Source: a virus. From it: 64,000 nucleotides of DNA. Location: the IMG/VR virus record IMGVR_UViG_3300022221_000006, positions 1 to 64,000 of that record, one strand, 5' to 3'. This document shows positions 4,060 to 60,746 of the stretch, in pieces (the stretch's first letter is position 1; every line of letters starts with the position of its first letter). Both the position numbers and the translations under genes were made by a program. The notes beneath the pieces were generated by a model. It ran no database searches. It worked only from the letters and a program-made list of their open reading frames with translations, and had not been told where the DNA came from.

Positions 4060-4067
4060 GATTTTAT

Positions 4068-4082
4068 CCCGTTAAATTAACC
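4068..4082 (+). promoter_or_regulatory. putative phage-RNAP late promoter (class L), upstream of terminase
   Basis: CCCGTTAAATTAACC, repeated at 20626 and 41843, immediately after a double terminator. Confidence 0.65.
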
Positions 4083-4412
4083 TAGAATAGGTTCCTTGAA
4101 GGGTATATATGGAACATTCCCGTGAGGGATCCTAGGGAGGGTCTTTAGGGATCCTCTTAGAGATACCTTTAGATACCCTTTTAATACTCCCCTATATTCT
4201 ATTATTATTAATAGATAACAACAGTGATAGATGATCCCCTAAAGGATAGTATAGGGGGATATTTTTCTCCTTCAAAGGGGAGGGCACAGGGGATAATTCA
4301 ACGGGGTCTTTTTATTCGGAGACTAACACGAACTCTAAGATTTCCAAGCGCGTCTGGGAGTCAACTTCAAACATTATCCCTCAAAATTCAATTTTAAAGG
4401 TATTTACAAGAT

Positions 4413-20625: not shown

Positions 20626-20646
20626 ACCCCGTTAAATTAACCCTGT
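20626..20646 (+). promoter_or_regulatory. putative late promoter (class L), upstream of scaffold/capsid
   Basis: ACCCCGTTAAATTAACCCTGT. Confidence 0.7.
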
Positions 20647-40820: not shown

Positions 40821-40862
40821 TGCGCCATATGTGGTATCTTATATGAATAGGAATAATCCTAT
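40821..40862 (+). promoter_or_regulatory. putative phage-RNAP early promoter (class E), copy 1
   Basis: TGCGC-N7-GGTATCTTATATGAATAGGAATAATCCTAT; the 30-mer is identical at 42949 and 43365. Confidence 0.75.
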
Positions 40863-41842: not shown

Positions 41843-41863
41843 ACCCCGTTAAATTATCCCTGT
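41843..41863 (+). promoter_or_regulatory. putative late promoter (class L), upstream of lysis genes
   Basis: ACCCCGTTAAATTATCCCTGT, 20/21 identical to the 20626 copy. Confidence 0.7.
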
Positions 41864-42936: not shown

Positions 42937-42978
42937 TGCGCAAAAATGGGTATCTTATATGAATAGGAATAATCCTAT
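42937..42978 (+). promoter_or_regulatory. putative early promoter (class E), copy 2
   Basis: TGCGC-N7-GGTATCTTATATGAATAGGAATAATCCTAT, then CACAACAA..GAGGT RBS. Confidence 0.75.
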
Positions 42979-43352: not shown

Positions 43353-43394
43353 TGCGCAAAAACAGGTATCTTATATGAATAGGAATAATCCTAT
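43353..43394 (+). promoter_or_regulatory. putative early promoter (class E), copy 3
   Basis: same motif, preceded by hairpin TACGGGG...CCCCGTA. Confidence 0.75.
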
Positions 43395-43873: not shown

Positions 43874-43904
43874 TCAACAAATCTTTTTTCGAAGGAGGAA
43901 AGGT

Positions 43905-44309: not shown

Positions 44310-44366
44310 CTGCTACCCCATATGACACCTTCGGGTGTTGTATGGGGGCGTGTAGCTTTATTTTTT
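44308..44366 (+). terminator. rho-independent terminator
   Basis: CCCCATATGACACC-TTCG-GGTGTTGTATGGGG...TTTATTTTTT. Confidence 0.75.
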
Positions 44367-44380
44367 CTTCCGGAGGAACA

Positions 44381-44515
44381 ATGGCTTCAACAAAGCTCAA
44401 AATCGTTCACTATGTTTTAATATTTAGTGTATTAGCCTTATTTTCAAAGCTGCGCCCTGAGACAATGCTTGTCGGTGCAATCGCGATCTACCTCTATCAG
44501 AAGGTAACTTCATGA
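44381..44515 (+). CDS. small membrane protein (44 aa, not in ORF track)
   Basis: GGAGG RBS; MASTKLKIVHYVLIFSVLALF... Confidence 0.5.
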   Translation: MASTKLKIVHYVLIFSVLALFSKLRPETMLVGAIAIYLYQKVTS

Positions 44516-44581
44516 TAAAATTTATAGTGGGTCTATATTTGATATCGTTAATCCCAAAGGTTATTGAGAAAATTGAAAGCT

Positions 44582-46837
44582 ATGATAAAACAAAAGATAA
44601 TTCTGACAACAACAAAAAGGATAGCAAAGGAAATTGCACCACAAAACCCCCTAATATATCTAAAAGAACATGATGTCGAAAAGTATATTAATGAATTAAT
44701 CTCGACAGTCTATCTGTTCACACGCCCTAAGAAGGGTTCATCGGACCCTCTCTATATGGTTGAAATTATATCGGCTATCGGACATCGGGTCAGAGGAAAG
44801 TTAGGACTTAGAAAAGACTCAGCGTTAGCAGCTAAAACAGGAGCGTTTCTTTTATATACATTCGAAGTACTTAATATCATCCATGTTATCCTTGGAGCTG
44901 GTAGACGTGGACATAATGCGTACATTGTAGATGTTTTGGACGATGCTACGATAAATGAACTATGGAAGGAGCTAGGTGACCGCGAGATCGAGAAGTTACC
45001 TGCGCTACAGCCGCATCAGGATTGGAAGCATTCAAGGCATCCTACAGGAATGCTTATGGTAAAAACAGGATGTAAAGAGACACTTGAATCACTAACACCT
45101 CAAACACATCCTATCGTCTTCAACGTCCTGAACAGAGCTCAACAAGTAGGTTGGCGAATAAATACGGAGATTCATCACTTACAACAATGGGCACTAAAGT
45201 ACAAAACAGTCGCCTTTGCAGATATATGGGAACAACAAAACCCTGAAGCGCGTGCTACAAAATTAAGAGAGGCTCGATCTATTGACTCGATTGCGAGTAA
45301 ATACCTAGGGACAACCTTCTATCATCTCTATTACTATGACTTCAGAGGTCGTAAGTATGCAGCCACTGCTTATCTACACGAACAAGGAAGTGATGTAGCG
45401 AAAGGTCTCTTGCTCAGAGATGATAAGAAGCGAATAGGAAAAGAAGGATTTTTCTGGCTACTTGTGAGTATCGCCTCTAACTGGGGCGGTGAGAGTGGTC
45501 GTGAAGATGGATTGAAAACAGATAAAATACCTCTTGAAGAAAGGTATCAATGGGCGCTCGCAAATGAGGATATTTTATTGTCCTACGCGAAATCACCTAA
45601 AGTGAATCAGGGATGGATGAAAGCTGATAAGCCCTGGCAATTTATAGCAGCGTGTTTTGAGCTAAGGTCTTGTTACCGATGGGCTAAGTATGACCATACT
45701 AAGCATGATCACCTAAAGGAGGAAATCTATGAATATGAGTCTCATCTTGAGTGCTTTATTGATGGTAGTAACAATGGCTCTCAGCATCTATGTGCGCTTA
45801 CACGCGACGAAGTTACGGCTCCTCACGTTAATCTTGTGCCACTTGATTATCCTGGGGACCTCTATAAATATGTTGCAGATCATGTTTGGGACAGCTTAGA
45901 GGCTCAAGTTAATCTCCTGACAGAAGCTGAAGTTGAAATTTGTGAAAAGTTCATAGATGATCTGGTCGTGCACAAAAAGCGAATAAACAGTGCGCCCCGT
46001 GGTAGCGAAATCAAAAGGCTCCTTGTGGATAAGATACGAAAGTTTAAGGAGGAACATGGACTTTTAATGGTGCTTGTAGCTCCTGTATTTTGGTTTAGAA
46101 TCCAGGATGCTAAGGAGAAACGTAAGATTGTGAAGAGAAACACAATGACGCTTCCCTATGGCGGAACACCCTATGGACTTGGACAACAGATCATTGATGA
46201 TGCTAAGAAACATGGGATTGAACAACTCCTATATATGGAACATAGCTGGGGCGCTTTCTTAGGAAGAGAAGTATTTAAAAACTGCCAGGAAGCTCTTAAA
46301 CGACCTATGCAACTCCTTGATATCTTTGAGAAGGCAGGGAAGCTAGCAGAAGCCGAAGAGAGATTCTTAAAATGGACTGTACCAATAACAAACTTCCCGG
46401 TAGTGCAGCACTACACGGAAGGTCGTGTGAAGAAGATATGGGTTCAGTACGGACCGCCTAAAGGAACCAGAAATTCAACAGGTTACTTTACAAACACCTT
46501 ACAATTGCATATTTGCTTTGTAGAAGATCCACAACCATCGAAGCGCAAACAAGCACAGGGAGCTTCTCCTAATGCCATTCACAGCCTAGATGCAGCACAC
46601 TTAATGCTTACAGTAGATGAGGCACCTTTTCCAATAACAACTGTTCATGATTCTTTTGGATGTTTGTTAGCTGATATGCCTGAACTGTACAAACTAATAC
46701 GTGAAACATTCGTAGAACTCCATGAGGTCAATCCACTCTATTCATTGTTTGAACAGATAGGAGGCGACATCTCAGACGTTGATCTGGGGAATCTTGATAT
46801 CAATTTGATACTTGATTCAGAATATTGTTTTTCATAG
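44582..46837 (+). CDS. T7-like single-subunit DNA-directed RNA polymerase (stand-alone)
   Basis: DFRGRKY, KPWQF.A, motif A DGSNNGSQH, motif B RKIVKRNTMTLPYG, PNAIHSLDAAHL, motif C VHDSFG. Confidence 0.95.
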   Translation: MIKQKIILTTTKRIAKEIAPQNPLIYLKEHDVEKYINELISTVYLFTRPKKGSSDPLYMVEIISAIGHRVRGKLGLRKDSALAAKTGAFLLYTFEVLNIIHVILGAGRRGHNAYIVDVLDDATINELWKELGDREIEKLPALQPHQDWKHSRHPTGMLMVKTGCKETLESLTPQTHPIVFNVLNRAQQVGWRINTEIHHLQQWALKYKTVAFADIWEQQNPEARATKLREARSIDSIASKYLGTTFYHLYYYDFRGRKYAATAYLHEQGSDVAKGLLLRDDKKRIGKEGFFWLLVSIASNWGGESGREDGLKTDKIPLEERYQWALANEDILLSYAKSPKVNQGWMKADKPWQFIAACFELRSCYRWAKYDHTKHDHLKEEIYEYESHLECFIDGSNNGSQHLCALTRDEVTAPHVNLVPLDYPGDLYKYVADHVWDSLEAQVNLLTEAEVEICEKFIDDLVVHKKRINSAPRGSEIKRLLVDKIRKFKEEHGLLMVLVAPVFWFRIQDAKEKRKIVKRNTMTLPYGGTPYGLGQQIIDDAKKHGIEQLLYMEHSWGAFLGREVFKNCQEALKRPMQLLDIFEKAGKLAEAEERFLKWTVPITNFPVVQHYTEGRVKKIWVQYGPPKGTRNSTGYFTNTLQLHICFVEDPQPSKRKQAQGASPNAIHSLDAAHLMLTVDEAPFPITTVHDSFGCLLADMPELYKLIRETFVELHEVNPLYSLFEQIGGDISDVDLGNLDINLILDSEYCFS

Positions 46838-46849
46838 GAAACGTAACGA

Positions 46850-47494
46850 ATGAAGCAAATCAAACACACGCGTGAATTAAACAAAGAGGAGCTAGGACCT
46901 CTATATGACTATATCCTAGGGCTGAATGAACAGCTGCCTCTGGATATTGAGCTTGGACTTTATATCGAAATGGATCAATACCTGGGAGGCGACCTGTTTA
47001 TTGTCGACAACGTTCGAGACTTTCGTCTGATAGGTGCCGCAGGTCTGGTAGATAGTCTGGATTTCTTAACCGAACCAAATCTTGCAACTGTGCCCCAGGC
47101 GTATGATCACGCAGAATATATCCTGGAAGGAGCCTACGCGGTCTTATGGGTTTTGTGCAATAATGCAGGAGGACCGAACTTTATTATCCCTCGTTACTTT
47201 GCGCAGATGGAACCTAATGTACATCGTTCAATACGTCTCACTGAGAATTCATTGGCAGCTGACGTAGTCCCTGATAAAGAGACTGAAAGAGAAGTGATAG
47301 TTGAAAGTCACGAGGAGCCTTCTGACGAAGTTATAGACTCTCGAAAAGAAAGAGCGATGGATGATGGACCTGATTATGAAGATGGACCTGAGTTTGAAGG
47401 ATATGAAGAGCGTTGTGACAATGACGCATCTGACCCTTTCGAAGGAATGAGCGATAGAAACGAAGAGGATCAAAAGACTGATCCCGAACTATAA
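46850..47494 (+). CDS. hypothetical acidic protein
   Basis: AGGA RBS; NNAGGP motif; acidic tail. Confidence 0.65.
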   Translation: MKQIKHTRELNKEELGPLYDYILGLNEQLPLDIELGLYIEMDQYLGGDLFIVDNVRDFRLIGAAGLVDSLDFLTEPNLATVPQAYDHAEYILEGAYAVLWVLCNNAGGPNFIIPRYFAQMEPNVHRSIRLTENSLAADVVPDKETEREVIVESHEEPSDEVIDSRKERAMDDGPDYEDGPEFEGYEERCDNDASDPFEGMSDRNEEDQKTDPEL

Positions 47495-47497
47495 GCA

Positions 47498-47707
47498 ATG
47501 ATGCTGATAACACGAAAAGATCCATTCACCGGCGTAGTGAATGAGATGACACTTGATATTACTCGCAAACAATTGGACAGATGGGAGAAAGGAGGAGAAC
47601 TGATACAGAATGTATTTCCAACTTTGTCCCCTGATGAACGCGAATTTCTCATGACTGGAATAACACCAGATTCGTGGGATGAACACTTAGGTAATGATCA
47701 AGAATGA
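47498..47707 (+). CDS. small phage protein
   Basis: LIQNVFP.L..DEREFLMTGIT...WD. Confidence 0.65.
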   Translation: MMLITRKDPFTGVVNEMTLDITRKQLDRWEKGGELIQNVFPTLSPDEREFLMTGITPDSWDEHLGNDQE

Positions 47708-48318
47708 GTAGAACAATAATAGTAGAGAACTGTGAACTTTGGTACTGTAAACTGGACCCAAAGTTCCCCAATAAAAAGTTCAGCAAAAAGAATCCGGCTT
47801 GGGAAATACAAATCCGGACAAAAGTAAAAGAGGTCGCTGATTTATGGCGGGAATCAGACCTCCGCGTCAAAAGGATTATTCCTGAAGATGCTGATGAGAA
47901 TCCAATCATTGAGGATGCTTATTGGCGTGTGAATCTCAGGAAACGATCCATCAAGGCCGATGGAGACCCAGCAAATCCAGTGGATGTTGTCGATGGTAAT
48001 CTAGACGAGATCGATGCAAGATCGTTAGGAAACGGTTCAGTCGGAAACCTTCGTATCTTTCAATATGAATACGAGAATGACGACGATGATAAAGGTATTG
48101 CAAACATGCTCATGGGTATCCAGGTAACAAAGCATGTTGTGTACAAACCTAAAGAACAGGCGGCTTTTGGTCAAACTACGACTGAAGTCATAACGCCAGT
48201 TGAAGACCCAGATGAGAAAGAAAATCCCTGGGATAGTTCTGACGATGAGTCAGAAGATGCTAAAGAAAAGAAACCTATTAAAGTGGGATCGAAAGACGAT
48301 GAGACTAAAGACTTCTAA
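47704..48318 (+). CDS. single-stranded DNA-binding protein (T7 gp2.5-like)
   Basis: P..VD.......LGNGS...; acidic C-tail ending in Phe; lies before DNA polymerase. Confidence 0.75.
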   Translation: MSRTIIVENCELWYCKLDPKFPNKKFSKKNPAWEIQIRTKVKEVADLWRESDLRVKRIIPEDADENPIIEDAYWRVNLRKRSIKADGDPANPVDVVDGNLDEIDARSLGNGSVGNLRIFQYEYENDDDDKGIANMLMGIQVTKHVVYKPKEQAAFGQTTTEVITPVEDPDEKENPWDSSDDESEDAKEKKPIKVGSKDDETKDF

Positions 48319-48337
48319 AGTCTAGCTCGTTATCTCG

Positions 48338-48397
48338 ATGCCTGCTAAAATACATACTGTAAAATGCACCTAAAAGGCATGCCGGAATCGTAACCGG
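48338..48397 (+). repeat. intergenic two-hairpin motif, copy 1
   Basis: ATGCC...GGCAT-G-CCGG AATCGTAA CCGG. Confidence 0.6.
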
Positions 48398-48434
48398 TAA
48401 ATTTAATTAAATCAATTAAAGCAGGAAAATACGA

Positions 48435-48935
48435 ATGAGTGAATATAAAATATGCTTTATCAAGGGTGATGAAGTATTAAGAACTGTAAAGGCAACCTGT
48501 CTCGAAGGTATCAAAGCTTCAGATGTCCAGGGAAAGAAACGTGTCGAAGTCTACGAGACGGTATCAAGAAAAGAATATCATGTCGCAACCATCGTAGGAT
48601 CGATTTCGTTGAATTTCTGGAAGTCAAAGTTGGCTACGCCAGACCTGCCGAGCGACGAAAAAGACAATCTAGCAATAAATCCTGGACATTACCAGGGATA
48701 CATTGCCGATATGCAATGGTGGGAGACGGAGCAGTATCTTGCAAAGGATTTTCAAAGTGTCTCTCTCAATCAGGTACGTAAGTACATTGCGCGAGTCGGT
48801 AAGAAGGATGATGAGCTGCAGGAGCTTTTAAAGGCAAAATGGTATCTTGACTTCCAAATTGCGAAGATGATCAATAACAATGAACCTATTCGAGTTGCAG
48901 ATGTCCAATCGCTGATTGCCAGCTATAAGGTATAA
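48435..48935 (+). CDS. DUF3310 / T7 gp1.7-like nucleotide kinase domain protein
   Basis: INPGHY...KY..R.GKK....QEL.KA.WYL. Confidence 0.75.
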   Translation: MSEYKICFIKGDEVLRTVKATCLEGIKASDVQGKKRVEVYETVSRKEYHVATIVGSISLNFWKSKLATPDLPSDEKDNLAINPGHYQGYIADMQWWETEQYLAKDFQSVSLNQVRKYIARVGKKDDELQELLKAKWYLDFQIAKMINNNEPIRVADVQSLIASYKV

Positions 48936-48948
48936 CACCTAGGAGGCT

Positions 48949-49131
48949 GTGATGATCAGTGACGACAGAAAAGCTTTTGAAGAATGGATACAGAAACCGC
49001 CTTATGAGGAAAATACTCCGAGATACACAGAAAAGGATAGCTGGCCTGGTCAATACCAGAGTATCAATGTGCAACTCGCATGGGAGGCTTGGCAAGCGGG
49101 TCAAAACTTAGGACATGCAGGAGAAAACTAA
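48949..49131 (+). CDS. small hypothetical protein
   Basis: AGGAGG RBS; R.AFE.W...Y....VQ.AWEAWQA. Confidence 0.6.
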   Translation: MMISDDRKAFEEWIQKPPYEENTPRYTEKDSWPGQYQSINVQLAWEAWQAGQNLGHAGEN

Positions 49132-51137
49132 TGTTCAGACTGGTTTTTGATATTGAAGGCGATGGGTTCCTAAGAGATGTAACACGGATGTGGACGATCA
49201 TTATCCATAACTTAACCACAGGCGAGCGCGTGGAATTCCTTGAGAATGACCTAGGCTGGCAGGATTATTTTAATAATAATGTGGGGATTGTAGTTGGGCA
49301 TAACATTTTAGGATATGATGTTCCTGTCCTAGAAAAACTCTTTGGGTATAAATTCCCAAAAGAAACTCAATTTCATGACACGCTTTTGATGTCACAGATT
49401 CTTGACTACCGGCGATTCGGCTACCAAGGGCACTCACTAGCGGTGTGGGGTAAATCACTAAATTATCCAAAAATTGACTTCCACGACTTCTCAAAATGGA
49501 CTCCTGAGATGTCTAAGTATTGTCACCAAGACGTAAATCTTAACGTTGAGGTGTATAAAATTCTAATACAAGAATATTATGATTTGTTTGACAAACTTGA
49601 GAAAGATGAGGGAACAGGTCATAGAATAAAAACATTTCTTCAGGCTGAACATGCTGCCACTACTTGGCAAGCTCAGGCTGAATTGCACGGCTGGCCCTTC
49701 GACAAAGAAGGAGCTATTGAACTCTTCGGTAAGTTAGAGGAGGAACTGACTGAAATTCGGGATAAATTAGAAGGAGTCTTAGGCTCAAAGTCAATTGCAA
49801 TCGACAAGGTAAAAGGAATTGTGCCTCACAAAGAACCTAAGTGGGTTGCTACAGGGTACTATCATGCACATACTGCGCAGTGGTTTGGTATCGATCCTCG
49901 CTGCGGTTCTGATCTTTCTACAAAAGAGGCTCGTATGATCATAGCCTCCGGCGAATATGAGGAGGAAGATGAAATAATGAAGATGGCTCAGGCTATCCTG
50001 ACGCATGGTGAGCGACCGATTACAGGCCCGTATTGTAGAGTAGACTTCCAGAAACTAAAGTTAAGCTCTGTCGCAGATGTTAAAATTTATCTATATCGAC
50101 ATGGATGGGAACCCTCCGAATGGAACACTAAATGGAATCCTGCTACTAAAAAGAATGAAAACACTTCACCTAAAATCATTGATGACGATCTCGATCTTTT
50201 AGGCGAAAACGGAAGGTTGTATCGAGCCTTTACAACAGCAGAATCTCGATACAGTATAGTAAAAACATGGATTGAAAACGTTGATGACAATGGAATGCTT
50301 CATGGAAACTCAAGGATGATAGGAACGCCGAGTATGCGCGCTACACACCAGATCATTGTAAATGTACCCTCTGGAGAGCTTAAGGATGATGGAACTCCTG
50401 TTAGTAAATGGGGTCCTGAGATGAGAGCCTTGTTTAGGTCAAAGCCAGGCTGGAAATGCATAGGATGTGATTCAAAAGGCAACCAGGCGCGAGGTCTCGC
50501 ACACTATCTAGGAGATCAGGAGTTTATAGACGTAATCCTGCACGGTGATATTCATGCATACAACGCCGTTAAATTAACCGAAGCATTGTCGAAGATGGGT
50601 GTACAGCACACGGTACCAAGAAGTGCCGCAAAGAGAATCCTGTATGCCTTCCTATTTGGAGCTTCAGGTAAGAAGCTGTGGAGCTATATATTTGGCACCT
50701 TCAATGCAACTAAAGGAAATAAGTTAAAAAAGGAGTTTATTAAAGCAGTACCTGGGTTTGAAGACCTTAACAAAAAGCTGGAGAATATCTATGGAAGCAC
50801 CTCAAAGTTTGGATACGGCTACATTCCTTCAATGGTTGGTAATAGAATTTATGTTGATTCTTTTCATAAACTTCTTGTATATTTACTACAATCCCTTGAA
50901 AAGATTACATGTAGCACTGCGGTTATGCTCACTATGCAGCGTCTGGAGGAAGAAAGTATTCCATACATCCCTCTCATCTACTATCATGATGAGGAGGATT
51001 TCATGGTACCAGAAGAATTTGCAGAACGTGCAGCTGAAATAGGTTCAGGCGCCTTCAAGGATGCGGCGCTCCTATATGATATCAAAATAATGGATGGTGA
51101 TGCAAAGATCGGCGACAGCTGGCTAGATATTCATTAA
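49131..51137 (+). CDS. family A DNA polymerase (T7 gp5-like)
   Basis: ExoI FDIE, ExoII GHNILGYD, ExoIII YCHQDV; motif A GCDSKGNQAR, motif B RSAAKRILYAFLFG, motif C YHDE. Confidence 0.95.
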   Translation: MFRLVFDIEGDGFLRDVTRMWTIIIHNLTTGERVEFLENDLGWQDYFNNNVGIVVGHNILGYDVPVLEKLFGYKFPKETQFHDTLLMSQILDYRRFGYQGHSLAVWGKSLNYPKIDFHDFSKWTPEMSKYCHQDVNLNVEVYKILIQEYYDLFDKLEKDEGTGHRIKTFLQAEHAATTWQAQAELHGWPFDKEGAIELFGKLEEELTEIRDKLEGVLGSKSIAIDKVKGIVPHKEPKWVATGYYHAHTAQWFGIDPRCGSDLSTKEARMIIASGEYEEEDEIMKMAQAILTHGERPITGPYCRVDFQKLKLSSVADVKIYLYRHGWEPSEWNTKWNPATKKNENTSPKIIDDDLDLLGENGRLYRAFTTAESRYSIVKTWIENVDDNGMLHGNSRMIGTPSMRATHQIIVNVPSGELKDDGTPVSKWGPEMRALFRSKPGWKCIGCDSKGNQARGLAHYLGDQEFIDVILHGDIHAYNAVKLTEALSKMGVQHTVPRSAAKRILYAFLFGASGKKLWSYIFGTFNATKGNKLKKEFIKAVPGFEDLNKKLENIYGSTSKFGYGYIPSMVGNRIYVDSFHKLLVYLLQSLEKITCSTAVMLTMQRLEEESIPYIPLIYYHDEEDFMVPEEFAERAAEIGSGAFKDAALLYDIKIMDGDAKIGDSWLDIH

Positions 51138-51178
51138 TCTAGGGAAACTAAATTTGAACCTTTTTAACAGGACATTTT

Positions 51179-51427
51179 GTGGCTAAATTTAAAAAAGTAC
51201 GCAAGGCTCGACTTTTCAGGGCACTTGCAATAAAACTTACGATGATGCGATCGTACAAGCACATGTACCCAGCACCTATGCGTCTCAAGCTCATTGAAGC
51301 GATAAATGAGTTAGGGAACTCGGGACATCGTATTCGTATGGACCTCTATCGAAAGCTCACTGAGCCAGTTCTCAAAGATGAGTTTTACAGGCCTCTCCGC
51401 GTGGCGTACCACAAGCGCGGGCGTTAA
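51179..51427 (+). CDS. small basic protein
   Basis: AGGA RBS, GTG start, Arg/Lys-rich. Confidence 0.5.
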   Translation: MAKFKKVRKARLFRALAIKLTMMRSYKHMYPAPMRLKLIEAINELGNSGHRIRMDLYRKLTEPVLKDEFYRPLRVAYHKRGR

Positions 51428-51488
51428 ATCCAACAGTTCGTATAAAAGTTGGTCACACTCCAGGTATGCTCTGGAATTGTGTAAGAAG

Positions 51489-51522
51489 CTATCGCTAGCA
51501 ACGATGCCGGAAAAGTAACCGT
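51489..51522 (+). repeat. intergenic two-hairpin motif, copy 2
   Basis: CTATCGCTAGCAACGATGCCGGAAAAGTAACCGT. Confidence 0.6.
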
Positions 51523-51676
51523 GCTTTTAACCAGGAAACTATTTGGAGGAAATAATATGCCTGAATAATAAGTAACTGCAACGAAGTGCAGCTCTCTAAA
51601 ACAAATACTACTAGCTAGCATAGGGCGCAATCCACAGGGGATATCTATGCAGAAACACCTACCAAAAATCTCATGC

Positions 51677-51721
51677 GATGTCTAGAAAATCCCGCGCTGA
51701 CATCCCGGATAACGTAACCGG
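51677..51721 (+). repeat. intergenic two-hairpin motif, copy 3
   Basis: GATGTC...GACATC-CCGG ATAACGTAA CCGG. Confidence 0.6.
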
Positions 51722-51756
51722 GGCTAATCAATTATACAATCCGTATGGAGAGCATT

Positions 51757-52512
51757 ATGGCTGAAAATGTAGATGATGGCGGCTTTTCGTCAATTCTATC
51801 AAATAACAGAGAGAGGATGGATGAAATATCAACTCTCAAAAATAGCAAGGTAACAGGAAAGGCTCGCAATGTTGGGTTCGGCATTATTCTTATTGGGATT
51901 CTCCTAATGTTTATTGTCTTTGCAGCCCAAATTATCACAGGAATGTTTGCTCTGGTTCTTACACTAGTTGTAAGTGTCGGCGGGTTTCTGGGACTCCGGT
52001 GGTTGAAAACAATGGATCCTCTCATTCGACAGAAGACATTGAATATGCGCCTGGAGAAGATGATAGGAGAAGCCAGGGAGAGGGCGATGGAGCAGTTGCA
52101 GAATCAGGTGATGAAGAATGCTGATCGTCTGGCAAATGCGAAGGAAGCGATTATTAAAGTAGGAGCACTTATTAATAAGATGGAAAGTAAAATAAATCCT
52201 GCCGACGCTGGCTCTGCAAAGCACACTAAAAAGCTTAAAATGAAAGCAAAGATAGAAGAAGCTCACGATGCTATGAAACAAAACTATGTAGCAGCGCAGG
52301 ACGCCGATCTTGCCTTTAAAGCAAAAGTACATGAGTACCGTGAAATGGATGAATTTGCAGATATCGTTTCAGACGCACAGTCTATAATGAATTCAGCAGC
52401 AGACGGTGAGCTGGAAGAACTTCTATCACTGGAAGCTTTCGGACAGATCGAAACTAACTTTCATACTGCGGTAAGCTCTTTAGAAGCTTCTGCACTAGAA
52501 TTTAAAGGGTAA
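51757..52512 (+). CDS. membrane-anchored coiled-coil protein
   Basis: two N-terminal TM segments, then a long helical coiled coil. Confidence 0.75.
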   Translation: MAENVDDGGFSSILSNNRERMDEISTLKNSKVTGKARNVGFGIILIGILLMFIVFAAQIITGMFALVLTLVVSVGGFLGLRWLKTMDPLIRQKTLNMRLEKMIGEARERAMEQLQNQVMKNADRLANAKEAIIKVGALINKMESKINPADAGSAKHTKKLKMKAKIEEAHDAMKQNYVAAQDADLAFKAKVHEYREMDEFADIVSDAQSIMNSAADGELEELLSLEAFGQIETNFHTAVSSLEASALEFKG

Positions 52513-52515
52513 CAC

Positions 52516-52668
52516 ATGGGTAAGTCAACAGATATTCAATCATCTACACGTTGGATGTTGATCATCATTGGAATAGGTCTGGCGGCAATTGTGCTGGTAG
52601 GGCTCTCTAATGCATTTATCGGCGGATCATCTTCGCCATCCTCTTCAACTGAAGAACCATTGTTCTAA
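52516..52668 (+). CDS. small single-TM protein (50 aa, not in ORF track)
   Basis: MGKSTDIQSSTRWMLIIIGIGLAAIVLVGLSNAFIGG... Confidence 0.6.
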   Translation: MGKSTDIQSSTRWMLIIIGIGLAAIVLVGLSNAFIGGSSSPSSSTEEPLF

Positions 52669-52677
52669 GGTATTACT

Positions 52678-53625
52678 ATGAAAAAATCAAGAAAAATGTT
52701 AACAGCATTCTGTGTAGCAGCGATGCTTATTGCGAATGTTCATGCAGGACAAACACTCCGTATCGGTACAGGTTCTGAAGCCGGTACATATTTCCCTCTA
52801 GGAAACGATATCAAGGATTTCTGTGGAGGTGCTACAAGCAAGGAACTCGATGTACAGGTCAGTGGCGGCGCCATTGATAACTTGTTGGGACTCATCGAAA
52901 AGAGATACGATGCAGGTATTGTTCAGATCGATGTGTTGAAGTTTTATGAAACAAAAATAATGCCAACAAAAGTGAATGAAAACAGACTCAAGGTTGTAAT
53001 GGGACTGCACGCTGAGTCGGGACACCTTCTGATTCCAAAAGGCTATAAACCATCAGGAGGCGGCTTTGGGAGTCTTCTTTCTAGCATAGGCGAAAATATT
53101 GGCGTCAATGATAAGAAAGGTATTAGTATCGATCTTATCAAAGGTCAAGAAGTAGCCGCCTGGGGAGGGAGCACGCTTAGTTTAAAGGCTTTAAGTTCTT
53201 TCCTGAAACTAGGAGTCAAGCCTGTTGATATAAAGAAAGGTCAGGCTGTGAATATGCCGATTCTTGTTATTGAAGGACAGCCTAGTTCTGTTGTACAGGG
53301 ATACCTTGACAGTGGTAAATATACGTTGGTCCCGATAGATCCTACAAGCGTGTCATCTGTTGCGCCTTTTTACTCTGCAACAACATTGACGTATATGTCA
53401 AAGGGCAAACAGTTCTCTGTGAAATCTTTTGCAGTGCGGGCTGTCTTAATAGGGAAGGCTTCAAGGAAAGCCGAAAGGAATGTAGCGTTCTCTGAACTAG
53501 CGACATGCCTCTCTAGTAGTTTAGAGGACCTTGCAGACGATTCAGCTACAAACCCGAATTGGGAAACGATCTTCGAACTTGTAGATGAAGGTCAAATCAA
53601 TTGGGGCTATTTCCCACTCCTTTAG
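52678..53625 (+). CDS. TAXI-family (TRAP transporter) periplasmic solute-binding protein
   Basis: signal peptide; LRIGTGSEAGTYFPLG, SGG.IDNL..., GIVQ.DV, LH.E..HL. Confidence 0.8.
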   Translation: MKKSRKMLTAFCVAAMLIANVHAGQTLRIGTGSEAGTYFPLGNDIKDFCGGATSKELDVQVSGGAIDNLLGLIEKRYDAGIVQIDVLKFYETKIMPTKVNENRLKVVMGLHAESGHLLIPKGYKPSGGGFGSLLSSIGENIGVNDKKGISIDLIKGQEVAAWGGSTLSLKALSSFLKLGVKPVDIKKGQAVNMPILVIEGQPSSVVQGYLDSGKYTLVPIDPTSVSSVAPFYSATTLTYMSKGKQFSVKSFAVRAVLIGKASRKAERNVAFSELATCLSSSLEDLADDSATNPNWETIFELVDEGQINWGYFPLL

Positions 53626-53640
53626 AAAACATAACTACGG

Positions 53641-53670
53641 AGAGCCGCTGATAAGGGCGGCTCTTTCTTT
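53641..53670 (+). terminator. rho-independent terminator
   Basis: AGAGCCGC-loop-GCGGCTCT-TTCTTT. Confidence 0.7.
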
Positions 53671-53691
53671 AATAAATCATTGAGAAATAAA

Positions 53692-54012
53692 ATGGCTGAA
53701 TATTTAGATGAACACGTGGATTTACTAATGATAACTTTCGGAACACAAGAAGGTATCTTTAAGGATGGTATCCCGAAATTGATCAAGGCAATTGTAGCAA
53801 ACAATCCTGCGTGGTTTGTTGGTCCTGCTCTTCTTATACACTACTCATGGGTGCCGGTAATCAAGGATAGAATTAGTACAGAAGGAGGGCGTATCTTCTT
53901 CGACGGTATGCAAATGATACCTACTGAGCAGGTTGAGGAATTTACAATAGCGCTTGTTGATGCAGGGACGGTATCGGAAGAGCCATCAGAAAACCCTAAG
54001 GAGCACCATTGA
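53692..54012 (+). CDS. hypothetical protein
   Basis: ORF within a + strand operon. Confidence 0.5.
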   Translation: MAEYLDEHVDLLMITFGTQEGIFKDGIPKLIKAIVANNPAWFVGPALLIHYSWVPVIKDRISTEGGRIFFDGMQMIPTEQVEEFTIALVDAGTVSEEPSENPKEHH

Positions 54013-54013
54013 G

Positions 54014-54616
54014 ATGGATACTACTGATACTAGTTGGCGCTTCGAAGGTGCCGGTGAAGATTTCAAAAATCTCTGTTTAGCTTATCTAGGAGCAGCTTCT
54101 GAAGCAGAGCTAGCCGAGAAGGAAATGTATTGGATCCTTCCACACGGTAAACATTGTGAAGAGCTCTGGGAAATCCCTCCTGCTATCAATATTGAACTTG
54201 AATTCAAAGATGTTGGAAGACCGGCTGCGTATGATGAGAATGGTCTGCTAGAAGACGCAGGCTTTAGTATCGGATACGTAGCGTTTTGCACCTACAAAGG
54301 ACGTAAGGTTATTCTTGAATGCAACGCGAGTCCTTATTGTATTCACTGGAAGAAGTCCGACTTTCCCGAAGTCTTTGAAAGCGATACTTCGACTGATCCA
54401 CTAAAGGAAGCAGACCAATTATCCTATGAGGAGCGTTGTAAGCAATACCATATATATGAAGAAAGGGCGCATACACTACAGCATCTCGTAAATATCGTAG
54501 GGAAAGCCGTCAATAATCTGCCAATCTCCAAAGTGACCTCTGATGGAATACTGTGCATGAGTGTTAGCTCGTATAATGCCTTGCTTGATACCTTGGACGA
54601 ATTTGTTACGGAGTGA
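54014..54616 (+). CDS. hypothetical protein
   Basis: AAGGAG RBS before ATG 54014. Confidence 0.6.
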   Translation: MDTTDTSWRFEGAGEDFKNLCLAYLGAASEAELAEKEMYWILPHGKHCEELWEIPPAINIELEFKDVGRPAAYDENGLLEDAGFSIGYVAFCTYKGRKVILECNASPYCIHWKKSDFPEVFESDTSTDPLKEADQLSYEERCKQYHIYEERAHTLQHLVNIVGKAVNNLPISKVTSDGILCMSVSSYNALLDTLDEFVTE

Positions 54617-54810
54617 TTACTATGGAGGACCCGGAAGAGATATATCTGCAACCAGAATGTTGCATTGAATCTAACACAGGGAGGTTGTGGTGTGAAGACG
54701 ATATTGATGATTGTCGCGAAGGAAATCCGTGGGTTCGATATATCCGTGCCGATCTCGTTGAGAGACGCGCTACAGAGATATCGGAGCTGCAAGAAGTCGT
54801 AAAAGAATGA
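54613..54810 (+). CDS. small hypothetical protein
   Basis: P..IYLQ...WCED...YIRADL pattern; GTGA overlap. Confidence 0.6.
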   Translation: MITMEDPEEIYLQPECCIESNTGRLWCEDDIDDCREGNPWVRYIRADLVERRATEISELQEVVKE

Positions 54811-55070
54811 GTGAAAGAGTAAAAAGATATGACCATCTGCTCACTAGGGTAGAGTATCCGAGAGAAAGAGGTTACCGCATGGAGGCTATCCGCCTGCCGA
54901 AATGGATTCATATACGTATCACTGACACGGAACACCATAAATACTTAACAGTACATTCTCGTATACATGTCAACAAAGAAGTCAGAGTTGGACCTAGCTA
55001 TAGCTTAGCCTTTACTGACCATGAAATTATCAAGGAGCTGAGCAGCGACATAAGCTATCGGTTCCTTTAA
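54807..55070 (+). CDS. hypothetical protein
   Basis: ATGA overlap. Confidence 0.5.
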   Translation: MSERVKRYDHLLTRVEYPRERGYRMEAIRLPKWIHIRITDTEHHKYLTVHSRIHVNKEVRVGPSYSLAFTDHEIIKELSSDISYRFL

Positions 55071-55087
55071 CTATTAGGAGACACTGA

Positions 55088-55558
55088 ATGCCAAGTGTAA
55101 AAGAAGAATGTCCTCTTTGCGAGGCTCGCAAAACTATGAAACGACTCCACGCTGAAAATAAGGATCTGATTAGCCGCAATGCGTTTCTAAGACAGCGTCC
55201 AGATCTACCTGTCGACAGGATTCCTGCGTATGAAGAAATGAACAAGAAGATATCAGAGCTGGAGTGGAGGCTTATGATTGATACTCTGAATCCAAATAGA
55301 CGACTACATCTTGAGGCGTTAGTGGCAAAGAATAAAAAGCTTGAAGAGGAACTGGAAAAGCTGAAAACACTGGTGGATAATTCAGCAGATGCCTTTGAGT
55401 ACTTTGAAACCATTGAAGCGATGGGTGACGATGGAACTATCGTCGGAGGTGAACATATAGAACTTCTCGTTAAGGCAGCTAGAATTTCCAAGGAGTATGT
55501 TTTAGAGGAGCAAGATAACGTTTTGTATGTAGTAGATTCAACACAGGAGAAACAGTAG
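55088..55558 (+). CDS. hypothetical coiled-coil protein
   Basis: AGGAG RBS; CPLC; RNAFLRQRPDLPVDR. Confidence 0.6.
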   Translation: MPSVKEECPLCEARKTMKRLHAENKDLISRNAFLRQRPDLPVDRIPAYEEMNKKISELEWRLMIDTLNPNRRLHLEALVAKNKKLEEELEKLKTLVDNSADAFEYFETIEAMGDDGTIVGGEHIELLVKAARISKEYVLEEQDNVLYVVDSTQEKQ

Positions 55559-55560
55559 TA

Positions 55561-55899
55561 ATGGATATCACGACGTTAAAGATAATTCCTCTCCTGGATG
55601 TCCTTTATGATCTGCAAGAGCTAGAATGTAAGACGTTTGGAATGGAAACTCCTCCAAAAGGACACTCCTTTAAATTACCAAACGGAGAGACTGGTATTAA
55701 GCAGAGACTATGGGAGATACTTCGAGAGCGTCACTGGGGAAATCAAGACTTTGGAAACGACAGACTCTATATAATTCCTGTAGAAGAGCTGGCGGAACTT
55801 CCCGGAGACATGTTAGTACTCATTACACGTTGCGTCGATGCTATCAATGAGCCTACGGACTCTCTACCCGCATGTCTCGTCTTTTATATTAGCTGGTAG
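55561..55899 (+). CDS. hypothetical protein
   Basis: AGGAG RBS. Confidence 0.6.
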   Translation: MDITTLKIIPLLDVLYDLQELECKTFGMETPPKGHSFKLPNGETGIKQRLWEILRERHWGNQDFGNDRLYIIPVEELAELPGDMLVLITRCVDAINEPTDSLPACLVFYISW

Positions 55900-55905
55900 G
55901 TATTT

Positions 55906-56322
55906 ATGAATACTATACACATCGCAACGTTGGTTGACTTCGCAGAAGCGATAGAGTCTGGAAAGAAACTTTTCTATACAAACGGACTTCCTGTAGGTGA
56001 GAAAACACCATTAGGTGATATTAGAAACGCCATTGAGATGAAAAGGATCATACAATCGCCGTGGACCATTAACTTCGAGGACTATCGAGGATTTCTACCC
56101 ACACCTATCCTTAAGGAACCTATTAAAGGAAGCCTCTACTATACTATTGTTGACGGTCGAGCCTCTGTAAAAGAATGGACAGACTCAAATGCTGATTGGA
56201 GACTTCTCACTACAGGTTTTGTCTGGTATACAGATGAAGATGCAAACGGATTTCTGAAAGGAATGAAATTGCTTGTAGCTCATGTAGCAGGGGTTCCCTT
56301 ACGAAAATCCAACGCGCAGTAA
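55906..56322 (+). CDS. hypothetical protein
   Basis: 138-aa ORF in operon. Confidence 0.6.
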   Translation: MNTIHIATLVDFAEAIESGKKLFYTNGLPVGEKTPLGDIRNAIEMKRIIQSPWTINFEDYRGFLPTPILKEPIKGSLYYTIVDGRASVKEWTDSNADWRLLTTGFVWYTDEDANGFLKGMKLLVAHVAGVPLRKSNAQ

Positions 56323-56369
56323 GTCGGGGTTGGTTGCACTTGTGTCTGCGGACAAGTAATATTATAAAA

Positions 56370-56403
56370 CTATCGCTCGCATCGATCCCGGAAAAGTAAC
56401 CGG
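56370..56403 (+). repeat. intergenic two-hairpin motif, copy 4
   Basis: CTATCGCTCGCATCGATCCCGGAAAAGTAACCGG, 30/34 identical to copy 2. Confidence 0.65.
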
Positions 56404-56688
56404 AGTCTCTGACTTAGAGACAGACCACGTCCTAATAAAATGGGAGAATAAAATGTGAATCAGGGGAGGACTGCGGCCTAGATGTCCGTAGATAGCCGTT
56501 TTTAAGATAGTAGGCGAACAATAAAAACAAGAGACCTGTTGAGGTTTCGATAATATGACTTCGAGTCTGCAGCAACTAGGCAGATCAAGTACGTATTTTC
56601 AACTGTGAAAGAAGCCTCCTTCTGGTCGATGTCTGCTAGCGGCATTCAGAAGGAGGTTGTATTAACTTAAAATAAATAGGAGCGTACG

Positions 56689-56853
56689 ATGATACGTGCA
56701 GTACTTGTAGGTGGTAGATGGTTAGCATTACAGATAAGAGACGTTGAAGATGACATTCAGAACATCAATACTTTTCTTGAATCTAGTGAATGCGTTTTAT
56801 TAGTAGAAGATCTAGAGGATATACCTCCTGGCTTTGAAGTGGAGATGGTGTAG
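56689..56853 (+). CDS. small acidic protein (54 aa, not in ORF track)
   Basis: AGGAG RBS; MIRAVLVGGRWLALQIRDVEDD... Confidence 0.55.
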   Translation: MIRAVLVGGRWLALQIRDVEDDIQNINTFLESSECVLLVEDLEDIPPGFEVEMV

Positions 56854-57488
56854 TGATAGATTCATTTTCATTACCCACGAGGGCAGCAGAAGTAAATAGA
56901 TGGGCAGGAAAGCATCTCATAGGGCGTCGAATGAATATTAGCGAACATAGTTTCGAGGTCGCCTTTTACTCACTTCTTCTCTATCAATTAGTGGAACAGC
57001 ATCTGGAGGACGCTGTTTCCTGTAAGAGAGAAGCTGATAAGGCTCACTATATAGGAAATAGAGCTATGTTGAAAATTGTCCAGGCGATGCAGGGAGAGGT
57101 ACTAGAATATGCGCTGGTGCATGACATCGCTGAGATCGTCACAGGAGATATTCCTCATGATGTGAAAAAGTCATATCCTGAGTTTAAATCTCTCCTGAAA
57201 CAAATTGAGGCAGATTTTATGCGCAAGCACTTGCCTGCGTTTATGAAAACGTATGATCCTCTGGTAGTATTCATTGTTAAGGCCGCTGATACATATGCGG
57301 CCTTTCGGGAGTACTTGCAAGAAGAAAAGTATGGAAATACACTACCGGATGTCTATGAAAATATTATAGAGGCCTTTGAGACTCTATTCGACACGGAACC
57401 GGATGTACCTCAGATATGCAAAAAATCTATCTGGGGAATTCTTCTTGAACTGGGTGCTCCTGTACCCTCTCAATTACAACTCGGATGA
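56853..57488 (+). CDS. HD-domain phosphohydrolase (YfbR/DatZ-like deoxynucleotidase)
   Basis: RW...N.SEHS..VA, ALVHDIAE..TGDIP, VKAAD. Confidence 0.85.
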   Translation: MIDSFSLPTRAAEVNRWAGKHLIGRRMNISEHSFEVAFYSLLLYQLVEQHLEDAVSCKREADKAHYIGNRAMLKIVQAMQGEVLEYALVHDIAEIVTGDIPHDVKKSYPEFKSLLKQIEADFMRKHLPAFMKTYDPLVVFIVKAADTYAAFREYLQEEKYGNTLPDVYENIIEAFETLFDTEPDVPQICKKSIWGILLELGAPVPSQLQLG

Positions 57489-57495
57489 GAAAACT

Positions 57496-58350
57496 ATGGC
57501 AGTTCGGTTAATAATAGATGGCGATGTTCAATGTCATTCTGCATGTCGATACTCAGACTGGATAAGTCTTGTAAAAAAGATTGAAGGCGAATTCAAAGAA
57601 GTTCGACAGTATGACAGTGAGGGTGCATTCATTCCTCCTAAGCACACACGCCCTGAAGAAAGAAAGTATATGGAGGATTCTTGGAAAAATTTCAAGAAGG
57701 ATCTTGATGGTATCTTGAAGAAGTTTTTCACAAACGACTTTAAAATGGCCGTAAAGGGTGAGGGTAATTTCAGAGATGATATGTATCCTGACTACAAACA
57801 AAACCGAAAGAATCAAGAAGCGGTATTAAAGGCTAAGGGTGAAACACGACGTAAGTATGTAAACGGTGTTCGCGACTTAGCAATAATGGAAGGACTTGCA
57901 GTACCTGCTGATGGGATGGAGGCAGATGACTACGTCAGAATATGGGCTGAAGAGGCTCGACAAGAAGGACAAGACTTCATTATCGTCACAATCGATAAGG
58001 ATCTTAAATGCATCCCAGGACGACATTACAATCCTTCAAAGAAAGAACTCATTACAATGTCAGAAGCAGATTCACTCCGGTTCTTCTATCAACAATTACT
58101 CAGTGGAGACCCTACTGATAATATCCCAGGAATCCCAGGAATAGCTGAGAAGACTGCAACTAAGGAATTAATGCATTGTATGTCTGAAGAGGAGTTTCAG
58201 GAAAATGTTGTAGGAAATTATATCGCGGCGTATCAGGAAGAGTGGTATGCAGCATTGACGTTTAATGGTGCTCTTCTGTATATTTTAAAATCAGCCGATG
58301 ACAAATTTACCATCGATCATTGGCCTATCGTCAAGGAGTTAACGAGTTAA
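57496..58350 (+). CDS. 5'-3' exonuclease (T7 gp6-like)
   Basis: IDGD, NFR...YPDYK.NR, EADD, IDKDL..IPG, GD.TDNIPG.PG. Confidence 0.9.
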   Translation: MAVRLIIDGDVQCHSACRYSDWISLVKKIEGEFKEVRQYDSEGAFIPPKHTRPEERKYMEDSWKNFKKDLDGILKKFFTNDFKMAVKGEGNFRDDMYPDYKQNRKNQEAVLKAKGETRRKYVNGVRDLAIMEGLAVPADGMEADDYVRIWAEEARQEGQDFIIVTIDKDLKCIPGRHYNPSKKELITMSEADSLRFFYQQLLSGDPTDNIPGIPGIAEKTATKELMHCMSEEEFQENVVGNYIAAYQEEWYAALTFNGALLYILKSADDKFTIDHWPIVKELTS

Positions 58351-58815
58351 ATGTCTGATATATCTGTTCCCGGTGTAAAGAAGAAAAGAGCTCTATACCA
58401 TAACGGTCATTGGAAGTTTCCTAAGAAGATGGGAAACGGTGTTGGTTTTATCTATGTCATCCGAGACAACGCTTTGAAGCGATTCTATCTCGGTAAGAAA
58501 CTATATATCTCAAATTCAGGCAAGAAACTGAATTGGAAGTACTACAAGTCGTCTTCAACGCTGCTTCACGATATGTTCGAGGCACGAGGCGAGAATGAGT
58601 TCGATTTCATCGTGCTCGACGAGTACAAAACAAGAAGCGGTCTTTCGTATGCAGAAACATGGTCTCTTTGTTTCGTAGATTCACCCCTCTCGAATACCTG
58701 GTTTAATACCCGCATCGAGAGAATTACATGGAATGTCACGGAACCTGTGACGGATACACATAAGCGTAGACTACATAGGTCTATCGCACTTGAAAATAGT
58801 TTAGAGGAATACTGA
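58351..58815 (+). CDS. GIY-YIG-like endonuclease
   Basis: GFIYVI......FYLGKK...WK.Y.SSS; conserved Glu and N-x motifs. Confidence 0.65.
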   Translation: MSDISVPGVKKKRALYHNGHWKFPKKMGNGVGFIYVIRDNALKRFYLGKKLYISNSGKKLNWKYYKSSSTLLHDMFEARGENEFDFIVLDEYKTRSGLSYAETWSLCFVDSPLSNTWFNTRIERITWNVTEPVTDTHKRRLHRSIALENSLEEY

Positions 58816-59057
58816 TGTTTCAATTTATTGTACACAAGCTGCTAGCTCTCACAGCAGTTGTAATAATGTTCAGCCAAGGGTTTTCGGCTTTTCAGGCCGG
58901 TCTTGAAATAGGGTTCAGCGAAATAGATCGACTGGATTGGTTGTTTCTGGCTATCTCAGCGGTAATGATATCCGCTATGTCTGAGCCACCTAAAAAGGGA
59001 GGTGTTGAGGGTGAGCCACCTAAAAAGGGAGGTGTTGAGGGTAAGCCAAATGAGTAA
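58815..59057 (+). CDS. small membrane protein with duplicated C-terminus
   Basis: two hydrophobic segments; EPPKKGGVEG twice. Confidence 0.55.
   Translation: MFQFIVHKLLALTAVVIMFSQGFSAFQAGLEIGFSEIDRLDWLFLAISAVMISAMSEPPKKGGVEGEPPKKGGVEGKPNE
58982..59041 (+). repeat. perfect 30-bp tandem duplication
   Basis: TGAGCCACCTAAAAAGGGAGGTGTTGAGGG twice. Confidence 0.95.
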
Positions 59058-60741: not shown

Positions 60742-60746
60742 AATAA

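Follow-up and report, generated by a model that had tools for sequence, protein, structure and literature searches.

Introduction

Virion-delivered RNA polymerases (RNAPs) are documented in N4-like, crAss-like, phiKZ/AR9-type and P23-45 phages. Phage N4 (Schitoviridae) relies on two single-subunit polymerases, the vRNAP gp50 and RNAPII (gp15/gp16), and its few early promoters are clustered before orphan genes and the gene for the second polymerase (PMC4496689). In the Thermus siphophage P23-45, a virion RNAP fused to the tape measure protein transcribes the gene of a second, free, non-virion phage RNAP; the two enzymes are ancient paralogues, and two distinct DNA motifs have been described (PMC10770324). 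A survey of polyvalent virion proteins reported virion RNAP modules only in N4-like phages. Here we describe two polymerases related to that of phage T7 (Autographiviridae, gene 1) that are encoded by a 64,000-nucleotide stretch of viral DNA, positions 1 to 64,000 of IMG/VR record IMGVR_UViG_3300022221_000006 (hereafter the window). One, RNAP2, is a free protein, and the other, MuF-RNAP, is fused to a minor head protein. Two classes of promoter-like motifs, E and L, are distributed around their genes in a way that suggests a two-step transcription program.

A free T7-type RNA polymerase

The open reading frame (ORF) for RNAP2 lies on the plus strand, begins at TTG (44564) or ATG (44582), and ends at 46837. 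The ATG is favored because relatives begin with the same MKxK... sequence, and counted from this codon the protein has 751 amino acids (aa). RNAP2 matches the Pfam family PF00940 (RNA_pol) with an E value of 1.4e-67 and 228.9 bits (cut-off 22), as well as phrog_414 (E 2.7e-113). Its motifs DFRGRKY (aa 253), DGSNNGSQH (394), RKIVKRNTMTLPYGG (514) and HDSFG (689) align to T7 RNAP positions 421-427, D537, K631 plus Y639, and D812, respectively. Equivalents of D537, K631, Y639 and D812 are retained in a phmmer alignment to the T7 enzyme, and the catalytic residues are invariant among 25 relatives.

An AlphaFold model built on 25 relatives has a predicted local distance difference test score (pLDDT) of 80.3. 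Residues 1-751 of the model align to residues 76-883 of T7 RNAP in 1cez, the T7 RNAP-promoter complex (Z 31.0, rmsd, or root-mean-square deviation, 3.2 A over 653 residues), and Z reaches 38 against T7 elongation complexes. Because the model overlays T7 76-883, RNAP2 corresponds to T7 RNAP without its first ~75 residues. Residues 1-136 of the model align to the promoter-binding N-terminal domain of the T7 enzyme, and a predicted beta-hairpin at 612-652 sits at the position of the specificity loop. Judged by sequence and model, RNAP2 looks like a complete, stand-alone and active T7-type enzyme with its catalytic residues intact. A preliminary description of the window had recognized a separate RNAP of ~750 aa with canonical T7-like motifs, shorter than T7 RNAP (883 aa), and both statements hold, with all of the quoted motifs present. 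The same description had placed the gene between class E motifs and the replication genes, and this placement is also correct: E motifs lie upstream, at 40833, 42949 and 43365, and genes for a single-stranded DNA-binding protein (SSB), DNA polymerase, exonuclease and primase/helicase lie downstream.

Homologues of RNAP2 form more than 120 clusters at 58-68% identity, with lengths of 742-799 aa (mostly ~745-760), and many reside on contigs of 60-97 kb. Taken alone, RNAP2 is a new but unremarkable member of the T7-like family, and its orthologue in phage DSS3_VP1 is already annotated "RNA polymerase". In two relatives (G016 and G020) the enzyme is split near motif B, at query residues ~526-535, with a 151-aa ORF between the pieces in G020.

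A polymerase domain fused to a MuF head protein

MuF-RNAP is a 1539-aa protein in which a minor head protein of the MuF/SPP1 gp7 type is fused to a divergent T7-like RNAP. The Phage_Mu_F domain occupies aa 144-250 and the Pfam RNA_pol match aa 991-1100, with a second RNA_pol stretch in addition; the polymerase core spans ~751-1539, and the full T7-like region begins at ~480. The motifs DHRVRIY, DASSSGAQ, KAAKAQNMVTFYGAG and IHDAFF are located at aa 858, 1008, 1071 and 1436. The gene sits between that of the portal, immediately upstream, and that of the scaffold. MuF/SPP1 gp7 proteins are packaged head proteins that are often fused to delivered effectors (PMC5512222), and MuF-RNAP has the features of such effectors: Phage_Mu_F lies at the N terminus, the enzymatic module at the C terminus, and the gene is next to that of the portal. 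By this analogy, MuF-RNAP is a candidate virion polymerase that is probably injected.

The motif A, B and C residues of MuF-RNAP are invariant across 25 sequences that share 22-67% identity. A model of the polymerase domain (pLDDT 80.6, with two long loops at low confidence) yields Z 29.5 to T7 RNAP 279-882 and 28-29 to mitochondrial RNAPs, compared with Z 20 to N4 vRNAP and 14.6 to N4 RNAPII. In profile comparisons, the MuF polymerase matches T7 RNAP with a probability of 97.8% (E 9.5e-13) and RNAP2 with one of 97.1% (E 7.8e-11), whereas hhalign finds no match between the MuF-polymerase profile and N4 mini-vRNAP (probability 0.5%). Both polymerases are closer to T7 RNAP than to N4 vRNAP.

Among 1.8 billion representatives, the fused polymerase domain accounts for 154 clusters at 50% identity, and in full-length relatives of MuF-RNAP the polymerase is always the C-terminal part of a protein of 1400-2070 aa. 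The reading frame is uninterrupted at ~1534-1572 aa in most relatives tested, and a few have insertions or stops. Within its clade the MuF polymerase domain is 64-73% identical, versus mostly 52-68% for RNAP2. From its sequence and model, the polymerase of MuF-RNAP looks active. In EBPR siphovirus 1 the fusion is interrupted by an HNH endonuclease gene. The fusion of another relative, G012, carries an in-frame insertion of 150 aa; we considered and rejected an intein, because Pfam recognizes none there.

Relationship of the two polymerases

A BLASTP comparison of RNAP2 with MuF-RNAP returns just two short matches, located near motifs A and C, with E values of about 1e-3. In a quick maximum-likelihood tree (24 rows, 636 columns), the fused polymerases and their DSS3_VP1 orthologue form one clade, with a Shimodaira-Hasegawa-like approximate likelihood ratio test (SH-aLRT) value of 98. 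RNAP2 groups with the free polymerases of DSS3_VP1 and Kolga and with the T7-like enzymes in a second clade (SH-aLRT 99), and the N4 enzymes are placed on long, unresolved branches. This phylogeny against T7 and N4 had been proposed as a check, and its two well-supported clades, like the sparse BLASTP matches, agree with the earlier view that RNAP2 is not a recent duplicate of MuF-RNAP. On the tree, RNAP2 is closer to T7 RNAP than to the MuF-RNAP of its own genome. Because the two polymerases fall into separate clades, each of which holds a DSS3_VP1 orthologue, the phylogeny identifies them as an old pair that has been inherited together since before the split from the Naomviridae.

In every near-complete relative tested, the two genes occur together. 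All 13 large IMG/VR contigs found through RNAP2 also encode the fusion, including the 12 that are at least 90% complete. Reciprocally, RNAP2 is present on eight of nine contigs found through the fusion (5/5 of those at least 90% complete).

In the phage collection, the roseophages DSS3_VP1 and DSS3_PM1 (Naomviridae) have orthologues of both polymerases (34% and 29% identity), and the order of the genes is the same. In DSS3_VP1 the orthologue of RNAP2 is gp080 and that of MuF-RNAP is gp108, with 1463 aa. Orthologues and synteny shared between the window phage and the Naomviridae extend to the portal, MuF fusion, capsid, tape measure, early genes, RNAP and T7-type replication genes. The partial genome of EBPR siphovirus 1 encodes the fusion at 58% identity. 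GenBank annotates the fusion in these relatives as head morphogenesis, minor head protein or hypothetical, and the papers describing DSS3_VP1/DSS3_PM1 and EBPR siphovirus 1 make no mention of any RNA polymerase. In Pelagibacter phage Kolga, MuF is unfused and a gene resembling that of RNAP2 is present. This phage is uninformative as a natural control because neither E nor L is recognizable in its AT-rich genome.

Two classes of promoter-like motifs

Class E is present in the window as three identical 30-mers, at 40833, 42949 and 43365. Each copy has TGCGC upstream (TGCGC-N7-GGTATCTTATATGA) and, downstream, a 6-bp dyad and a ribosome-binding site. In relatives, nearly every letter of the sequence tGCG(g/c)-aAAa-N3-4-(G/A)GTATCTTATATGA is preserved, and the sequence invariably lies on the coding strand. 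Class L, CCCGTTAAATTAACC, is found at 4069, 20629, 41846, 50566 (inside the DNA polymerase gene) and 68037, and a variant form (CCGGAAAAGTAACCG) at 48382, 51507 and 56388. A broad pattern that covers both forms, CCGnnAAnnTA[AT]CC, has seven occurrences versus 0.3 in shuffles. L is conserved in relatives as well as E; it directly follows the MuF-RNAP stop codon in dozens of them, and the canonical form occurs at the position of the first variant. In 13 complete relatives there are 0-4 copies of E (absent from one genome) and 3-7 of L, nearly all on the coding strand, and a reversed-pattern control gives 0-2 per strand.

The arrangement of the two classes around RNAP2 is consistent. In 28 of 28 loci with E, the nearest motif upstream of RNAP2 is E and never L, at -900 to -5000 nucleotides (nt), and the next L comes 0.3-2.6 kb past RNAP2 in most loci. 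Motifs and genes run in the order L - E - E - RNAP2 - L - replication genes. The genes after the second and third copies of E are orphans without a family match, and those after L encode endolysin-like, scaffold/capsid, terminase/portal/MuF-RNAP and replication proteins. The layout of DSS3_VP1, judged from its sequence, is the same. Its genome has 12 coding-strand copies of AGGGT(A/G)CGTTAAAGA, which has the CGTTAAA core in common with L; none lies in the 16 kb before the RNAP gene, and the first comes 1.3 kb after it. Two 43-nt E-like elements ending in GGCATCTATAATGA, with 10 of 14 positions matching E, directly follow the tape-measure terminator at the start of the early region, at 35.8 and 36.2 kb.

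Hairpins follow both motif classes. They are more stable than shuffled sequences after E (-3.6 versus -2.0 kcal/mol, p 6e-6) and after L (-5.1 versus -2.6 kcal/mol, p 3e-11), and control segments upstream of E and L do not differ from shuffles in hairpin stability. The 6-bp dyad of E lies downstream of the conserved block and differs between relatives, and similar hairpins follow L. We considered an N4-type hairpin promoter and set it aside as less likely; the hairpin in E elements rather resembles the leader of a transcript. We likewise set aside E as a sigma-70 promoter, because its spacing does not fit and its conservation extends beyond the hexamers, and a scan with the sigma-70 consensus gives 41 promoters versus 39.8 expected, with no excess.

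Several motif copies have additional features. Tandem pairs of L then E, 45-70 nt apart and away from RNAP2, are found in three relatives (G001 54263/54331, G002 63341/63409, G007 69034/69079) and suggest that some genes are served by both promoter classes. Within 48338-56403 of the window, the L-like variants can also be read as CCGG-N8-CCGG hairpins, each after a second small stem; these variants of the replication block may be promoters, terminators or processing sites. Immediately before L at 4069, two tandem 46-nt hairpin/T-run elements (3965-4059, 85% alike) look like a double terminator closing the preceding unit.

A terminator-like hairpin upstream of RNAP2

The terminator that had been placed at 44308-44366, between class E and RNAP2, is present at 44310-44366 as a GC-rich hairpin with a long T-run. 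It was read directly in the sequence and is missing from the output of a simple terminator scan. In each of the 11 aligned relatives there is a differing but pairing GC-rich stem followed by roughly 5-25 T, about 180-290 nt before RNAP2, and DSS3_VP1 has a hairpin and T-run 40-90 nt before its RNAP gene. One or two small hydrophobic ORFs come after the hairpin in relatives. No conserved block was seen between the hairpin and the RNAP2 gene across the aligned relatives. Most simply, the hairpin and T-run would be an attenuator that meters or delays RNAP2 through partial read-through.

Proposed transcription cascade and its alternatives

We propose, with a probability of roughly 0.6, that an injected MuF-RNAP reads E, that RNAP2 is made by read-through, and that RNAP2 reads L. 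MuF-RNAP would be made late, enter the capsid through its MuF head-protein part, be ejected with the DNA, and start at the few class E promoters. The resulting transcripts would cover the small orphan early genes, and read-through of the attenuator would reach the RNAP2 gene. RNAP2 would then read the dispersed L promoters of the replication, lysis, packaging and capsid genes. The MuF-RNAP gene would be among these, and its L-driven expression would close the loop for the next infection. The timing of this cascade fits gene content, because the second and third copies of E precede orphan genes and L precedes endolysin-like, scaffold, capsid, terminase and replication genes. A two-polymerase cascade had also been put forward in the preliminary description. 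Two intact, co-inherited enzymes, two motif classes and the layout stand behind it, and its packaging step and the pairing of enzymes with motifs are supplied by inference.

A number of observations weigh against the proposed cascade. The first copy of E precedes not only a 94-aa orphan but also a 182-aa ORF with tail-fiber-like PHROG matches. Some relatives have extra E copies elsewhere, often 45-70 nt past an L. Across 31 loci, covariation of L variants with the specificity-loop region of RNAP2 shows no simple pattern. E ends in a TATA-like element before a purine and so looks more T7-like than L, though RNAP2 is the more T7-like enzyme. Because the conserved hairpin stands between E and RNAP2, expression of RNAP2 needs read-through or an unseen promoter. 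Packaging and ejection of MuF-RNAP are argued from MuF/SPP1 gp7, from MuF-fused effectors (PMC5512222) and from the position of the gene between portal and scaffold. The assignment of each enzyme to a motif follows from position and from analogy with N4, T7 and P23-45 (PMC4496689, PMC10770324). Finally, E and L are putative promoters with predicted start sites.

The strongest alternative, which we nonetheless consider unlikely, is that host RNAP starts the cascade as it does in T7. Host RNAP, starting at E or at an unrecognized promoter in the ~220-nt gap after the hairpin, would transcribe the early region and RNAP2, and RNAP2 would then read the phage motifs; the role of MuF-RNAP would lie elsewhere, for instance in drawing the DNA into the cell, in priming, or in the transcription of a single special class. 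T7 does use host RNAP for its polymerase gene, which has an annotated E. coli promoter, and on the tree T7 RNAP falls in the same group as RNAP2. Moreover, a hairpin of the type that stops bacterial RNAP precedes RNAP2 in all relatives, leaving room for a separate promoter, but that gap contains no conserved block. E does include a -10-like TATAAT/TTATAT element, although its spacing to any -35-like element is wrong. In addition, the 14-nt E core and the upstream GCG block are near-invariant across phages whose proteins are only 55-70% identical, unlike sigma-70 promoters. A host start would also mean that, with two promoter classes present, a polymerase that is conserved and catalytically intact has neither to read.

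It is quite improbable that the pairing is swapped, such that the virion polymerase reads L and RNAP2 reads E, amplifying its own operon and running on downstream. The T7-like TATA-plus-purine end of E would suit RNAP2 as the more T7-like enzyme. In the window and many relatives, the E cluster is preceded by an L at a distance of about 1 kb, so that L transcripts could reach RNAP2; all genes are on one strand. However, L directly precedes endolysin-like, scaffold, capsid and terminase genes, so that a polymerase acting at time zero would switch on late functions at once. In N4, T7 and P23-45, moreover, it is the first polymerase that uses the few promoters clustered before orphan genes (PMC4496689, PMC10770324). 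Least probable of all is that only one enzyme carries out the phage's transcription, the other polymerase being a remnant that is decaying or has no catalytic function: the T/DxxGR motif of MuF-RNAP lacks its glycine (DHRVR) and two long loops of its model have low confidence, but the motif A, B and C residues are invariant down to 22% identity, most frames are uninterrupted, and the domain is more conserved within its clade than RNAP2.

Comparison with described systems

RNAP2 shares with T7 RNAP its Pfam family, fold, catalytic motifs and C-terminal end, along with the predicted promoter-binding domain, and its gene adjoins replication genes of the T7 type. It differs in its shorter N terminus and in its setting: the phage is a siphophage of 74 kb whose tape measure has 2573 aa, and a second polymerase, of the virion type, is encoded alongside RNAP2. 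Also, the RNAP2 gene follows phage-specific E motifs rather than recognizable host promoters.

The preliminary description had spoken of an N4-like logic, and the logic does resemble that of N4: there are two single-subunit polymerases in one phage, one of them predicted to be delivered, and few, clustered E motifs before orphan genes and a second polymerase gene. The lineage is different. By the hhalign and Z values given above, MuF-RNAP is not a relative of N4 vRNAP, and its carrier is a MuF head protein of 1539 aa, compared with the 3500 aa of N4 gp50. RNAP2 is a single chain with an N-terminal domain, whereas N4 RNAPII is split (gp15, 269 aa; gp16, 404 aa) and needs gp2. Here a phage motif is found at late genes, whose transcription may thus not require host RNAP. 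P23-45 is likewise a siphophage with a virion structural protein fused to a polymerase, two motifs and two anciently related enzymes. Its enzymes are of the two-barrel, cellular type and the carrier is the tape measure, whereas the window phage has single-subunit enzymes of the T7 type with MuF as the carrier.

In the literature searched, which left most subscription journals outside and included the survey of polyvalent virion proteins, we found no description of the MuF-RNAP fusion or of the two-polymerase layout. We likewise found none of what appears to be new here, namely the pairing of RNAP2 with a MuF-fused polymerase of the T7 lineage together with two conserved motifs.

Genome context

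The window comprises bases 1-64000 of contig C53, the longest in a bacterial bin of 3.03 Mb and 391 contigs. For 40500-49500 of the window, no RNA data set is listed as containing the region; the single sequencing run that contains it is a sediment DNA metagenome, the probable origin of the assembly. C53 has 74,179 bp. Because its first ~133 nt are repeated at its end, it represents a complete, circularly assembled phage genome of ~74,045 bp. Its GC content is 42.4%, versus 48.7% for the bin. All large ORFs of the window are on the plus strand, and the gene map given in Table 1 is based on PHROG and Pfam matches. The phage is a long-tailed siphophage with T7-like replication, as previously described. 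CRISPR spacers or other shared DNA linking the phage to a host were sought in the 3.03-Mb bin and none was found. The sole match in that search was contig C164 (3.2 kb), a fragment of the MuF-RNAP gene of a second, related phage, with 66-74% nt identity in three segments.

Table 1. Positions of genes, motifs and the hairpin in the window
Feature	Coordinates	Strand	Remarks
Class L	4066..4086	+	Heads terminase, portal and MuF-RNAP unit
Large terminase	5031-6380	+	
Tail-fiber-like protein	7746-11987	+	
Portal	14399-16009	+	
MuF-RNA polymerase fusion	16002-20621	+	
Class L	20626..20646	+	Few nt past MuF-RNAP stop, before scaffold and major capsid
Scaffold	20708-21412	+	
Major capsid protein	21428-22645	+	
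Tape measure	25858-33579	+	2573 aa
Tail protein	35153-40816	+	1887 aa
Small genes	40.8-44.3 kb	+	
Class E copy 1	40821..40862	+	30-mer; core kept in relatives
Class L	41843..41863	+	Before lysis genes
Lysis genes	42029-42891	+	Endolysin match weak: Peptidase_M15_4 below Pfam cut-off
Class E copy 2	42937..42978	+	Before orphan gene 43000-43311
Class E copy 3	43353..43394	+	Before orphan genes 43416-44309; nearest motif upstream of RNAP2
Terminator-like GC-rich hairpin with long T-run	44310..44366	+	216-272 nt upstream of RNAP2; read in sequence
Small hydrophobic ORF	44382..44516	+	44 aa; between hairpin and RNAP2
RNAP2	44582-46837	+	
T7-type replication block	47704..62720	+	gp2.5-like SSB, nucleotide kinase, DNA polymerase I, exonuclease, primase/helicase, ribonucleotide reductase; PHROG matches
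L-like variant CCGGAATCGTAACCGG	48380..48397	+	After RNAP2, before nucleotide kinase and DNA polymerase genes
L-like variant CCGGAAAAGTAACCG	51505..51522	+	Replication block
L-like variant CCGGAAAAGTAACCGG	56386..56403	+	Replication block

An orphan CheY-like receiver domain (Response_reg, E 1.7e-13) is encoded at 13007-13384, inside the structural module between the tail-fiber and portal genes. A gene for a SegE-like GIY-YIG homing endonuclease (58351-58815) lies between those for exonuclease and primase/helicase, and a 30-mer in perfect tandem duplication (58982-59041) overlaps the start of the primase/helicase ORF (59002). The replication block also encodes a YfbR-like HD-domain 5'-deoxynucleotidase (56853-57488, E 6e-20) and a DUF3310/nucleotide-kinase protein (48435-48935). 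Naomviridae carry deoxyuridine (dU) in place of deoxythymidine (dT) in their virion DNA. Given this substitution in related phages, these two proteins might edit the nucleotide pool.

Implications

A wider reading of these data has, in our estimate, slightly less than an even chance of being right. Two anciently diverged enzymes of the T7 lineage, one of them delivered by MuF through a long non-contractile tail, would transcribe the whole genome without host RNAP from compact promoters of their own, ~27 bp for E and ~16 bp for L. This would hold in a large, globally distributed lineage of siphophages that includes the dU-DNA Naomviridae, and the origin of the virion RNAP would be independent of N4.

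If the cascade is correct, the delivery of a T7-type enzyme by a siphophage as part of a MuF head protein would be a new route for virion RNAPs, and the design in which an injected polymerase makes a second polymerase would have arisen again within the T7 lineage. The cascade would also explain the unannotated region of 800 aa in a protein that GenBank calls head morphogenesis, and its polymerases and promoters make up two candidate orthogonal pairs. Metagenomes contain relatives in abundance, as the cluster counts for RNAP2 and the fused polymerase indicate, and a cultured relative, DSS3_VP1, grows on Ruegeria pomeroyi, so that the model is directly testable. The findings may also bear on how dU-DNA phages are transcribed.

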